This document shows positions 58,216 to 62,011 of a stretch of 64,000 nucleotides of DNA, in pieces. Origin of the DNA: Aulosira sp. ZfuVER01 (lineage in GTDB: Bacteria > Cyanobacteriota > Cyanobacteriia > Cyanobacteriales > Nostocaceae); assembly GCA_034530615.2 (NCBI GenBank), contig JAVRCV020000030.1, positions 1-64,000 of the forward strand. Reading direction: 5' to 3'. The notes under the pieces were generated by a model, which searched no databases, was not told the origin of the DNA, and saw only the letters and a program-made list of their open reading frames with translations. Every line of letters starts with the position of its first letter. The first letter of the stretch is position 1. The position numbers and the translations under genes were made by a program.

Positions 58216-58986
58216 TTATGCAACACGGTTTGATGAAAGTAGTTGCTTGGTTGCTAACCACATAAAAGGTGGAATTGTTTTAATATAACGACTCCAAAGA
58301 CGGCGCGGTTCTTGAATCCAGCGATAAAACCATTCAAATCCTAATTCTCTAACTATGCGGGGTGCGCGCTTATGGATTCCTGCATAAACTGGGAAAACTC
58401 CTCCCATCCCTAGCATGACTGCCTGAATTTTACCTTTATGCTGCGCTATCCAATTTTCTTGTTTGGGACAACCTAGAGATACAAATACTAAACCCGCACC
58501 ACTAGAATTAACTTTATTAATCAGTTCTGCATCTTCACTCTCAGTCAATGGACGAAAGGGCAAAGGTTCCATCGCTGCTATTTTCAGCTTCGGAAATTCT
58601 TGCTCTAGCCTTTTTCGCATTCTAGAAAGGATTTCTGTTTGCGAACCAAGAAAGAAAACACTCACATTTTGTATTTGAGCTAGCTGACATAATCCTTGTA
58701 AGATATCCATCCCTGCTACGCGATCTTGGTAACGCGCACCCATCCGCCGCATCATCCAAACAAGAGGCATACCATCAGGAGTGACGACATCTGCATTTTG
58801 TAATACACTTGCAAACTCTGGATTCCAGTGAGCCTCCATCAGCATGTGTACGTTAGCTACGCATACTGTTCTACTTTCGCGGGCGATCGCCCATCTCATT
58901 ATTGTTTGGATCTGATCTTCAAAGCGTAAAGCAGTAATGGGAAAATCCAGAACTTTTTGTTTAGGCAGAAATGTTATTTCTCCCAT
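58216..58986 (-). CDS. WecB/TagA/CpsF family glycosyltransferase (GT26)
   Basis: ANVH, PDGMP, RVAGMD, LGCPKQE and EPRRLW. ATG at 58986 after GGAGGG. Confidence 0.92.
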   Translation of the reverse strand: MGEITFLPKQKVLDFPITALRFEDQIQTIMRWAIARESRTVCVANVHMLMEAHWNPEFASVLQNADVVTPDGMPLVWMMRRMGARYQDRVAGMDILQGLCQLAQIQNVSVFFLGSQTEILSRMRKRLEQEFPKLKIAAMEPLPFRPLTESEDAELINKVNSSGAGLVFVSLGCPKQENWIAQHKGKIQAVMLGMGGVFPVYAGIHKRAPRIVRELGFEWFYRWIQEPRRLWSRYIKTIPPFMWLATKQLLSSNRVA

Positions 58987-59689
58987 CAATCCCTCCTGTG
59001 TCAAAGACAAAAATCATCAACATCAACTAGTACATTGCCAACTGTCTAACAATTAGGTGGTACTATTGCTGACTTTTTTCTAAGCTTTTGGCATGGTCTG
59101 ACTCACACACATGGAGATGCAATAGTTTTATCAGTAAATTTCTGGGAACCCTGGTATTTTTCAAACATCTGACCACCGTATATTAGTTTACAAGCTGAAC
59201 TGAGGCTTTTCCCAAACGTGTGTACAAACTTCATGGTTACTTCATAATTAGTTTGTCTCTTCTTCATGCAATCTTCATGATTATTGTAAATCTACTTAAC
59301 TTAATAAAATTTTGTAGTAACTATATAGTTATTTCGTGAAGTAAAAATATAAACAGTCAAGCTACTACCATCTGATATGCAAAAGTATGAAATCAAAAGC
59401 TTTGCTCAAAATAAAAGTAGAAACAGATGAAATACTGGTTAATGAGTATACTTCGTATAAAAGTAGATATTTGTGAATGGCATTAAATCTGGTTGTTTAC
59501 CTAATAATTATTAGACGATTAACCATTTCTGTTTACAGAAGCGTTGATACTAAGTAATGAGTTGCTATAGATAAACCAAGATGTAGTTGTAAGCATCTGT
59601 GGTTCCAAACTCTCAAGTTATTTTTTGTACAGAAATTAAAATCAAATTACGATGGGACCCAAAGACGTTATTGCATAGTGAGAGTTCCT

Positions 59690-59856
59690 CTAGTCCAAGA
59701 AGTCAGAAGGCAGATGGCAGAAGGAAAAAAAGATTTTTTTATAGGCTTTTTAAGCTTTTGCAACTGGATAGTTATATCCACTGCGCTGTACTAGTCTTTA
59801 GCCGTGAGACTTCTGATAGTATAGGCAGAAGGGAAAAAGCTGATTTTATAGGCTTT
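59690..59856. repeat. Degenerate repeat or MITE remnant
   Basis: Direct repeat GGCAGAAGG..AAAAA..ATTTT..ATAGGCTTT at 59716-59749 and 59824-59856. A CTAG-bounded segment 59690-59794 ends in GCGCTGTACTAG. Confidence 0.4.
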
Positions 59857-59975
59857 ACAACTAAATAATTATTTTGCCTATCTCCAATAGTGGCTGTCAT
59901 CTGTCTTAACGGTGATTCATTATATTTTTTAATTTAAGGCTCTATCTTATCGAAAATTACTAATATTTTTTGATT

Positions 59976-60242
59976 CTATAAATAGACTTTAGTACTTATA
60001 CAAATTCTGATGTTTTTAGATAGAAAAATTTGTTTTTTCACTTGAAACAAATAAAAAAGGAGAAGATGAATTTTATCTTCTCCCTTGCCCTTATTTTTAA
60101 TATCGTCTGCTTTTTTCTCTTCCTTCAGCCTTTGTCGTAGCATCTGCCTTTGTTTTTTAAGTTGCCGCTTTCTGGCTGAACCACCTTTACCTTTATCGTT
60201 CCTTCCCTCTCTGCGAGGAGATTCCCATCTTTTTAATCTCAT
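59976..60242 (-). CDS. Small, highly basic protein with an internal terminator; candidate alternative ribosome-rescue factor
   Basis: ATG start, K/R-rich N-terminal region with KGKGGS and KNKGKG motifs, and a hydrophobic tail from the hairpin onward. The function is inferred. Confidence 0.65.
   Translation of the reverse strand: MRLKRWESPRREGRNDKGKGGSARKRQLKKQRQMLRQRLKEEKKADDIKNKGKGEDKIHLLLFYLFQVKKQIFLSKNIRICISTKVYL
60048..60086 (-). terminator. Intrinsic terminator inside the ORF at 59976-60242
   Basis: Minus strand reads AAG-GGAGAAGAT-AAAATTC-ATCTTCTCC-TTTTTTATTTG. Confidence 0.75.
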
Positions 60243-60703
60243 AATTTTTTGCTTTTCTTAAACTTGACAACTTGATAAAGCAGGTATCCTAGCTTATATA
60301 CATATAATAGCGCTTTTTCAGCTGCGATCGCTTGTTACATGAAGAAATATTAATAAATAAGTGAGGATGCAATGTGAGTTTGCTTCAGTATAAATACTGA
60401 AACTAACTTATGCATATTTTACTGATGCATAGAGTGTATTTATTTATAATTCTAGTATAAATAAATACATTTTTTCCAGCAATGTTAATGTTTAGGGTTT
60501 ACAGGTTTGGAAGATTGCATTAAAAAAATAGACGCAGTTTCCTGCTTAATAGTTTCTATGAGTTCAAGAAAATAATATTTTCCAGCTACTAAGGTAACAT
60601 TTAGTATTTATAGCCTTGCTCAAAAGGTATTCTCTATGGACATATAGCCACTTGCTAGAGAAAGCTGAGAAGTCAAGATTTCTGATAACTATACTTTTTA
60701 CAG

Positions 60704-60787
60704 TGGGCAGGAGGAGAATCGAACTCCTATGACCGCAAGGTCGCCACATTTTGAGTGTGGTGCGTCTACCAGTTTCGCCACCCGCCC
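60704..60787 (-). tRNA. trnL: tRNA-Leu(CAA)
   Basis: GGGCGGG acceptor stem, anticodon arm CCACA-CTCAAAA-TGTGG, long variable arm, GTTCGATTC. Confidence 0.97.
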
Positions 60788-60804
60788 TTAGATGCAACTT
60801 TACT

Positions 60805-60834
60805 AATATACTCTATTCAAGAGTTTTGTGGCAA
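60805..60834 (-). promoter_or_regulatory. Promoter candidate for tRNA-Leu
   Basis: TTGCCA, 18-bp spacer, TATATT. Confidence 0.5.
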
Positions 60835-60925
60835 GGTATTGATAATTATTTCTGAATTATTGCTAATTTAGTACATAAGTATTAATTTTGGGGATGGCGC
60901 TTTGCATTGGTGGGCTAGGAGAAAT

Positions 60926-62011
60926 TTAAGATTTCACTAAAGAAGGATCAATATCCTCTAGCTGGGCACAACCGCTAAGTGCCATAGCCAAGCTTAACTC
61001 ACCTTGTAGCAGCGATATTATATGAGATACACCTGCTTTTCCCGCTACCGCTAGTCCCCATAAAACAGGCCGCCCGATGAGTACAGCTTTTGCTCCTAAT
61101 GCTAGGGCTTTGAGAATATCTGTACCTCGGCGGATACCTCCATCTAACAACACTTCGGCTTTACCATCTACAGCAGCGACAATCTCTGCTAGAGCGTCTA
61201 AAGATGCGATCGCACCATCTAATTGTCTGCCACCATGATTAGAAACAACTATTGCTTTAACTCCGCACTCGACTGCACGCACAGCATCATCTCCGCGCAA
61301 AATCCCTTTAATTACCAAAGGTAAAGGGCAGATAGACTGTAACCATTCCAAATCTTTCCAAGTTAGCGCTGGGTTTAACTGTTGGGCAAAGTAAGTAAAT
61401 AACCCAGATTCACCTTGTGCATGGGGAATATCTAGCCCTGAGATAGTTGCGAGATTGGCCGCGTGTAAGCCTGGTGGTAAGGAAAATTCGTTCCGTTTAT
61501 CCCGTTCTCTTTGTCCGAGAACAGGAGCATCTACTGTCAGACAAAGCGCTTTGTAACCTGCGTTATCGGCTCGTTCGACTAAAGCGCGAGTTAAACCTCT
61601 ATCTTTGTGGATGTAAAGCTGAAACCATTGCAGAGCATTGGGAAAATTTTGCTGAATTGCTGCGACTTCTTCAATAGATTTGGTAGCTAATGTACTTAAA
61701 ATCATGCCCACACCTGCTGAAGCTGCGGCTGTTGCAGTAGCTATTTCTCCCTCGGGATGCGCCAGACATTGAAAAGCCATTGGTGCAATTAGTAAGGGTA
61801 GCTCTAGAGGTTGTCCTAATATAGATGTAGTCAAGTTGCGATCGCTCACATCTACTAGCATCCGCGGTCTTAGTTTTAGGCGTTCAAAAGCAGCGCGGTT
61901 ATCTCGTAAAGTGATTTCATCCCACGCACCACTGCTGTAGTAATCAAGCGCCATCTGTGAGAGGTGCTGTTTTGCTAGCTGTTCGTACTCAAAGAGGTTA
62001 ATCGGTTGCAA
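60926..62011 (-). CDS. FMN-dependent alpha-hydroxy-acid oxidase (lactate/glycolate oxidase family)
   Basis: WFQLY, LTVD, SNHGGRQLD and DGGIRRGTD. TTG start. Confidence 0.93.
   Translation of the reverse strand: MQPINLFEYEQLAKQHLSQMALDYYSSGAWDEITLRDNRAAFERLKLRPRMLVDVSDRNLTTSILGQPLELPLLIAPMAFQCLAHPEGEIATATAAASAGVGMILSTLATKSIEEVAAIQQNFPNALQWFQLYIHKDRGLTRALVERADNAGYKALCLTVDAPVLGQRERDKRNEFSLPPGLHAANLATISGLDIPHAQGESGLFTYFAQQLNPALTWKDLEWLQSICPLPLVIKGILRGDDAVRAVECGVKAIVVSNHGGRQLDGAIASLDALAEIVAAVDGKAEVLLDGGIRRGTDILKALALGAKAVLIGRPVLWGLAVAGKAGVSHIISLLQGELSLAMALSGCAQLEDIDPSLVKS

Follow-up and report, generated by a model that had tools for sequence, protein, structure and literature searches.

A small gene on the reverse strand of the 64,000 nt of Aulosira sp. 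ZfuVER01 DNA analysed here (this whole stretch of 64 kb is called the window) encodes a conserved basic domain and then runs in frame, without meeting a stop codon, through a predicted intrinsic terminator of its own. The coding sequence of this gene is constrained, the in-frame terminator is conserved among its homologues, a stop codon before the terminator is missing, and no sign of selection for a stop is seen on either side of the terminator. Very probably, judging from these sequence patterns, the gene gives rise to a programmed non-stop mRNA with a product of ∼62–64 aa. By analogy with known systems, the small basic protein is a strong candidate for a cyanobacterial backup ribosome-rescue factor of ArfA/BrfA design.

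The initial annotation had described an 88-codon ORF at 59976..60242 of the reverse strand together with its translation, and an intrinsic terminator on the same strand; upon re-reading of the sequence, the ORF and its translation were confirmed, and a stem followed by a U-run was found before the TAG (Table 1). The core stem, GGAGAAGAT/ATCTTCTCC (60083..60059), encloses a loop of 7 nt and is followed by TTTTTTATTTGTTT. Folded as RNA, the hairpin has an energy of −17.4 kcal/mol (z = −4.0), and none of 200 shuffled sequences was as good. Since the end of the stem falls in codon 62, with the TAG starting 80 nt past the core stem, termination in the U-run would leave an mRNA of ∼63–64 codons without a stop, and the read-through tail is probably not in the main transcript. 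The purine arm of the stem encodes a second ‘KNKGKG’ stretch close to the hairpin, which changes along with this arm; from the alignment it is not a conserved protein motif. TATAAT-like boxes 25–35 nt upstream and Shine–Dalgarno-like motifs (AAGGA or GAGAG) are present in many homologues. In the window, a consensus promoter match at 60270..60241 was rejected because it overlaps the ATG, and it is probably not the promoter. The public sequencing runs checked for this locus gave one soil-metagenome run (0.12 share) and no RNA run.

Table 1. Features of the small gene and its upstream neighbour in the window, listed in the direction of transcription
Feature	Position	Strand	Basis and remarks
tRNA-Leu(CAA)	60703..60787	−	ARAGORN and Rfam; 460 nt upstream of the ORF, same strand
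Short 5′ leader and putative promoter region	60243..60275	−	Conservation with relatives from ∼7 nt before the ATG
88-aa ORF	59976..60242	−	ATG start, TAG stop; K/R-rich translation
Codons 1–41, conserved basic domain MRLKRWESPRREGRNDKGKGGSARKRQLKKQRQMLRQRLKE	60120..60242	−	Homologue alignment, pN/pS, AlphaFold2
Codons 42–52, polar linker of variable sequence	60087..60119	−	Alignment; length roughly kept
In-frame terminator hairpin, codons 53–62	60059..60086	−	Stem, folding, homologous hairpins
U-run TTTTTTATTTGTTT, expected transcript 3′ ends, no stop codon upstream	60045..60058	−	Sequence
Read-through tail and TAG	59976..60044	−	Tail length and sequence not conserved

The position of the terminator relative to the reading frame was followed in the homologues. 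With 40 further distant loci added, the collection comprised 95 distinct genes, and 94 of these have a hairpin and T-run in frame ahead of the first stop. In an automatic scan, hairpin and T-run were detected in 93 of 94 parsed genes, and the first in-frame stop was located past the stem in 92 of those; the apparent exception (L094) and the one gene that could not be parsed (L101) were found by inspection to carry the usual purine/pyrimidine hairpin and T-run inside the frame. L100 has a stop at codon 49 and no hairpin. A strict scan, which only accepted loops of 3–9 nt, had reported ‘no terminator’ in 11 of 92 genes; wider loops and inspection revealed hairpins with loops of 10–15 nt, or a downstream hairpin that had been picked wrongly (L022, L023, L082, L083, L094 and L058).

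Distances around the hairpin were measured in the 93 scanned genes. The first stop is 5–168 nt past the core stem when L094 is set aside (the median over all 93 is 48 nt), the median end of the stem is at codon 61, and the hairpin starts 153–159 nt after the ATG in 55 genes, while the linker formed by codons 42–52 roughly keeps its length and does not conserve its sequence. Between codon 42 and the position 8 nt past the stem, stops occur in the coding frame in only 2 of 93 genes, compared with 29 in the +1 frame and 76 in the +2 frame. Beyond the stem, the next stop follows after a median of 48, 31 and 41 nt in the three frames, respectively, and these similar values suggest that the tail resembles non-coding DNA. 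Close relatives of the window are 80–87% identical in DNA, yet their annotated proteins have 67, 80, 88 and 105 aa. In 9 of 93 genes the stop begins as little as 5–9 nt past the stem, in the T-run or at its end, and terminated transcripts of these genes could in part still include it.

The two arms of the stem change jointly among homologues, as in GGAGAAGA/TCTTCTCC, GGGGGAAGA/TCTTCCCCC, GGGAAAGA/TCTTTCCC, GAGAGAGG/CCTCTCTT and others. In a MAFFT alignment of 91 hairpins, double changes were found at all 10 of the 10 stem pairs. The covariation score of these hairpins was 0.387 compared with 0.314 for shuffles, no shuffle out of 500 was as high, and the true register of the stem outscored all six registers obtained by sliding. 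At the sequence level, the element has the features of an intrinsic terminator, with a G+C-containing stem-loop, a U-run and compensatory change, and the predicted mRNA ends ahead of any in-frame stop, as in the ArfA/BrfA class.

Searches at the DNA level gave a match in 48 of 61 related genomes. The conserved DNA extends from ∼7 nt before the ATG to just beyond the hairpin, and distant genomes match over the first ∼40 codons only; in 30 of 30 loci MRLKRWESPRREGRNDKGKGGSARKRQLKKQRQMLRQRLKE or a close variant of it stands at the start of this frame. By profile search, 114 of 401 genomes sampled across the phylum carry the gene, which is single-copy in this sample except for one weak second match (G219). 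Among the carriers are 40 of the 45 genomes of the family to which the window organism belongs, members of many further families in that order, and 9 genomes in other orders. The gene was found in none of the 29 genomes of one family (f38) and in 2 of 225 genomes across the remaining twelve families. Protein databases contain 1323 relatives at E ≤ 0.001. Among the 120 relatives listed, none has a Pfam domain, and the source names are ‘hypothetical’ or ‘uncharacterized’, the single differing name being a JGI label, ‘uncharacterized surface anchored protein’. An exhaustive profile search returned 456 clusters at 50% identity, and the 150 clusters listed are all small (61–172 aa), and most of them match at the N-terminus.

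Substitutions in the family follow the pattern of a protein. Over 38 aligned codons of 94 distinct genes (4371 pairs), pN was 0.125 and pS was 0.79, giving a pN/pS of 0.158, and differences at codon positions 1, 2 and 3 were 0.209, 0.106 and 0.505, i.e. the third position differs about five times as often as the second. These values point to purifying selection on the encoded residues. In 91 aligned sequences 14 columns are invariant (K4, W6, E7, S8, P9, R10, G13, R14, N15, G18, A23, Q27, K30 and L39), and a further 13 positions are conserved in at least 90%. The initial annotation had predicted a conserved N-terminal part of ∼40 aa, variable tails and a hairpin with U-tract upstream of the stop, and had named stops before the hairpin as a pattern that would speak against its reading. 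Each prediction agrees with what was found: the first ∼41 residues are nearly invariant, the annotated lengths differ among close relatives as given above, hairpin and U-tract precede the stop in all distinct homologues except L100, and this gene alone, 1 of 95, has its stop before the hairpin. With in-frame hairpins in 94 of 95 genes, variable tails and a conserved N-terminus, a tmRNA-gated non-stop architecture is thus well supported by the sequences.

An earlier record exists for the Nostoc sp. PCC 7120 homologue. In Table S3 of Brenes-Alvarez et al. 2016 (PMC4734099) it is a predicted sRNA of 201 nt on the reverse strand of the chromosome, with its TSS at 179863 and its end at 179662, with homologues in 42 of 89 genomes (26 of 27 heterocystous), 8 dRNA-seq reads in total, and, as a remark, ‘putative peptide according to RNAcode’. 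The sequence given there encodes MRLKRWESPRKEGRNDKGRGG..., starts 19 nt before the ATG (dRNA-seq TSS) and runs as far as the 3′ arm of the hairpin. In the main text of this source the coordinate does not appear, the RNAs verified there by Northern blot do not include this one, and nothing is said of a missing stop or of a function. For another conserved peptide treated there, ncl0160, all three stop codons occur among the homologues, which is the ordinary arrangement. Our literature search, which covered a limited set of papers, returned no cyanobacterial ArfA/BrfA-like factor and no paper with the words of the peptide. The earlier remark that no such factor had been described in Nostocales thus agrees with this search as far as rescue factors are concerned, while the locus itself was already listed in PCC 7120 as a predicted sRNA with a putative peptide.

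AlphaFold2 with 91 sequences predicted a coil for residues 1–19 and one helix for residues 20–54, with a mean pLDDT of 72, and with a pLDDT of 86–96 over residues 21–40. K17-G18-K/R19-G20-G21-S22 is invariant or nearly so, and residues 17–40 contain 11 K/R. In outline, the protein begins with a short conserved N-terminal piece, followed by a K-G-x-G-G-S turn and a basic helix, and has a variable end; as modelled, this plan resembles ArfA and BrfA, and the sequence does not. A Pfam search with the protein gave no PF03889 match at E ≤ 10 and returned only DUF6108 (E 0.022), below the cut-off of that family, and an NCBIfam search gave no match. In profile searches of the PDB at E ≤ 10, A1 had 0 matches and A4 matched one insignificant Nop14 segment (E 0.32), and from the ESM Atlas solely cyanobacterial ‘hypothetical protein’ clusters were returned. 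Complex prediction for RF2 (open-frame residues 21–369) with the family alignment ended with a score of 0.00, which gives no answer and speaks neither for nor against binding.

The genomic setting connects the small gene with tRNA genes. Upstream on the same strand, tRNA-Leu(CAA) is found in 41 of 56 related loci, and in 17 loci it lies 25–70 nt from the ATG, thus leaving little room for a separate promoter. tRNA-Gln(UUG) follows downstream, again on the same strand, in 8 of 56 loci. This arrangement suggests that the small gene is often part of a tRNA transcription unit, and a transcription unit shared with tRNA-Leu(CAA) is possible in the window as well. Apart from this tRNA, an Rfam search over 58500–61500 gave only a Streptococcus sRNA (E 0.73). 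Downstream of the small gene, an unusually long spacer of ∼960 nt (59011–59975) without any ORF longer than 89 aa separates it from the next long ORF (58216–59010, reverse strand). Two look-alike stretches were noticed by eye in this AT-rich spacer, at ∼59700–59745 and ∼59815–59860 of the reverse strand, each consisting of AAGCCTATAAAA and, within ∼10 nt, a T-run and CCTTCTGCC.

The window genome possesses the machinery of trans-translation, i.e. a one-piece tmRNA (128.9 bits) with the tag ANNIVSFARKPALAVA and SmpB, in addition to RF1, RF2 and an NFACT_N (RqcH-like) gene. No match to ArfA and no match to ArfB above the cut-off were detected in it, and a search with PF03889 across this genome gave no match at E ≤ 1. 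According to a survey of 162 cyanobacterial genomes, excerpted from PMC11633108, smpB is present in 161, ssrA in 155, arfB in 90, arfA in 0, rqcH in 161 and mutS2 in 150. In our sample ArfB was found in 129 of 401 genomes; 57 genomes have both ArfB and the small gene, 57 have the small gene only, 72 have ArfB only and 215 have neither (counted by hand, uncorrected for kinship). These counts show no complementary pattern between the two genes, and complementarity with ArfB was rejected as support for a rescue function. In family f38, ArfB is present in 29 of 29 genomes and the small gene in 0 of 29.

A further observation concerns release factors outside the window. On contig C68 of the window genome, just upstream of prfB (RF2, L104:2038-3147), there is a 138-aa RF2-like ORF (L104:1435-1851, forward strand), which spans the region of the GGQ domain without a GGQ and carries ITKWRWNYDNLKSS at the place of ITTSRAGGKGGQNVNK in RF2. 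In 11 of 14 genomes of the same genus, its best match (64–73% identity) lies 1–5 kb from a second, prfB-like match; the open frame has 354–364 aa in 9 of those 11 genomes, and an ORF in G006 (L121:1498-2316) keeps the SPF motif and has no GGQ. From its sequence, the 138-aa ORF looks like a catalytically dead RF2 paralogue that is truncated in the window genome.

We propose that the gene works as follows. The mRNA would end at the intrinsic terminator inside the frame, without a stop codon, and ribosomes would run to its 3′ end after ∼62–64 codons. Under normal conditions tmRNA–SmpB would release these ribosomes and tag the product for degradation with the tag given above, so that little protein is present; with trans-translation saturated or lost, untagged product would accumulate and could serve as a backup in ribosome rescue, as ArfA and BrfA do. 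The basic segment from K17 to K40, composed of the KGKGGS turn and the helix, would then probe the empty mRNA channel of ribosomes stalled at the 3′ end of an mRNA, and the invariant N-terminal L-K-R-W-E-S-P-R may help a release factor to hydrolyse peptidyl-tRNA. Here we infer termination at the site, gating and tagging by tmRNA, ribosome binding and release-factor recruitment. We favour the rescue function by analogy with arfA and brfA, the only two characterised genes of this design, and in view of the basic helix predicted for the cyanobacterial protein and its KGKG(G)S-like motif; a tmRNA-gated backup rescue factor working like ArfA/BrfA is in our view the most likely function, with about an even chance of being correct. 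The initial annotation had proposed the same function or another tmRNA-gated ribosome-binding peptide, and the non-stop part of its proposal agrees with the sequences; neither PF03889 nor a profile alignment (hhalign, 4%) connects the protein with the ArfA sequence family.

Several findings count against this function. The segment before KGKGGS is short and hydrophilic, unlike the hydrophobic RF2-binding N-terminus of ArfA; the RqcH-like gene of the window genome is a possible alternative backup; there is no significant sequence relation to ArfA and no complementarity with ArfB; L100 stops early; the stop is only 5–9 nt past the stem in 9 of 93 genes; and the PCC 7120 transcript, as tabulated in PMC4734099, has only 8 dRNA-seq reads. 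A programmed non-stop, tmRNA-gated product could also be something other than a factor that recruits release factors, for example another RNA- or ribosome-binding peptide which signals a failure of trans-translation or reacts to it, acting perhaps as a regulator, as a hibernation-like factor or in support of the RqcH pathway. In favour of such a peptide, the whole evidence on architecture fits it equally well, neither ArfA nor any PDB chain is homologous to the protein, its N-terminus is not hydrophobic in the way described for the RF2-binding part of ArfA, and half of the carriers (57 of 114) have the gene alongside ArfB. Nevertheless, the sole characterised genes of such design, arfA and brfA, both encode RF2-dependent rescue factors in the accounts excerpted from PMC5378476 and PMC6881298, and the protein suits a probe of the mRNA channel in its size, its KGKG(G)S-like motif and its basic helix. 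We place this alternative second and consider it rather unlikely.

It is also conceivable, with a fairly low probability, that the gene encodes an ordinary small protein whose unconstrained C-terminus happens to overlap a terminator, so that read-through, or suppression of the hairpin by ribosomes, leads to a normal stop without a role of tmRNA. An in-frame stop does follow within 168 nt in every homologue, and the nine genes with a stop 5–9 nt past the stem would fit. On the other hand, a stop before the hairpin would be cost-free for an ordinary protein, yet 94 of 95 genes have none there, the other two frames carrying stops in 29 and 76 of 93, and the stop positions past the stem match the expectation for non-coding DNA. 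Terminators in such positions are rare, too: the strict rule for hairpin and T-run, applied to both strands of the whole window genome, gave 607 sites, and among 5043 ORFs of at least 150 aa a site lies 5–170 nt before the stop in only 7 and within 165 nt after the stop in 126, i.e. terminators inside the 3′ ends of ORFs are ∼18 times rarer than downstream ones. Two other readings are both unlikely. One of them, which we consider very improbable, takes the ORF for the leader peptide of a transcription attenuator, in which translation through the hairpin controls read-through into, e.g., tRNA-Gln(UUG); the hairpin indeed lies within the translated frame, and this tRNA follows on the same strand in 8 of 56 loci. 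Against an attenuator stand the near-invariant protein of 41 residues under strong purifying selection, which is atypical for leader peptides, the downstream content, which is not conserved and in the window amounts to ∼960 nt without an ORF >89 aa, and the lack of any visible alternative anti-terminator pairing. Codon-based attenuation through the neighbouring tRNAs was rejected as unsupported, since the Leu and Gln codons of the ORF are not enriched for UUG or CAA. The other, to which we give hardly any credence, is a non-coding small RNA with an incidental ORF, in line with the listing in PCC 7120 as a predicted sRNA of 201 nt based on a TSS and a predicted terminator (PMC4734099). It is opposed by a pN/pS of 0.158 with saturated synonymous sites, which is the pattern of a protein, by a frame that is open in every homologue parsed, and by the same table, whose RNAcode comment flags a putative peptide.

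If the rescue function holds, the family would be a fourth, independently evolved group of RF-dependent rescue factors, ancient and widespread in cyanobacteria outside picocyanobacteria, made from a programmed non-stop mRNA whose transcription is shared with tRNA-Leu(CAA) in many lineages, and presenting an invariant W-E-S-P-R/G-R-N/K-G-x-G-G-S surface unlike ArfA, BrfA and ArfT. We advance this broader claim tentatively and would put it slightly short of even. If true, trans-translation would have a backup in cyanobacteria, for which RF-dependent rescue factors are so far unreported, gene control through programmed non-stop mRNA would have a third natural case, and a new surface for recruiting release factors would be available. 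The result shows, moreover, that such factors can be found by looking for conserved ORFs which extend across their own terminator; this arrangement has a base rate of ∼0.1% of long ORFs in the window genome.

RF-dependent backup factors have been described only in narrow groups, i.e. some beta- and gamma-proteobacteria (ArfA), some gamma-proteobacteria (ArfT) and some Bacillaceae (BrfA), according to excerpts of PMC6881298. ArfB (YaeJ), a rescue hydrolase with a GGQ and a backup for trans-translation which places a basic C-terminal helix in the mRNA tunnel (excerpts of PMC5378476), differs from the cyanobacterial protein of 88 aa in that the latter has neither the RF-1 domain nor the GGQ (compared with NF006718). 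ArfT of Francisella, compared here by its description only, is likewise a small and lineage-restricted factor without GGQ, and works with RF1 or RF2 (parts of PMC6881298; 10.1101/465609).

In ArfA, residues 31–48, nearly half of them basic, sit in the mRNA tunnel and the hydrophobic N-terminal part acts on RF2, according to excerpts of PMC5378476; ArfA is made from a stop-less mRNA, and its expression is therefore repressed by trans-translation, as stated in excerpts of PMC10107115. Both ArfA and the cyanobacterial protein are small and without GGQ, and the K-G-K-G-S motif of ArfA with its following basic stretch has a possible counterpart in KGKGGS and the predicted basic helix, a likeness that is short and compositionally biased. 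The lengths also behave alike, with 69–110 aa annotated for ArfA among the matches listed and variable lengths in the cyanobacterial family. In enterobacterial ArfA (P0121–P0240) the first ∼60 residues are nearly identical, yet 69–110 aa are annotated among the matches listed, which we attribute to the position of the stop being irrelevant. As for differences, the motif of ArfA comes after a hydrophobic RF2-binding part of ∼30 residues, whereas KGKGGS comes after only 16 hydrophilic residues; the stop-less end of the cyanobacterial mRNA would come from an intrinsic terminator; and the phylum is another one. An alignment by hhalign of the family with 16 ArfA sequences had a probability of 4% over 15 columns, placing REGRNDKGKGGSARK on RVEKNKKGKGSYMRK of ArfA. 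Sequence membership in ArfA (E. coli YhdL, PF03889) was rejected on this value and on the absence of a Pfam match.

BrfA resembles the cyanobacterial gene in design. It is confined to part of the Bacillaceae (excerpts of PMC6881298), whereas the cyanobacterial family is wide in its phylum, and no PDB chain except the Nop14 segment (E 0.32) was matched at E ≤ 10, in a PDB set that may lack a BrfA chain. The same excerpts describe BrfA (B. subtilis YqkK) as an ORF of 71 codons with a rho-independent terminator in the coding region and a product of ∼62 aa, which is down-regulated by SsrA tagging and whose C-terminal region monitors the empty mRNA channel. A terminator at the corresponding place and a predicted product of nearly the same size are found in the cyanobacterial gene, with the stem ending in codon 62 in the window and at a median of codon 61 in the family.
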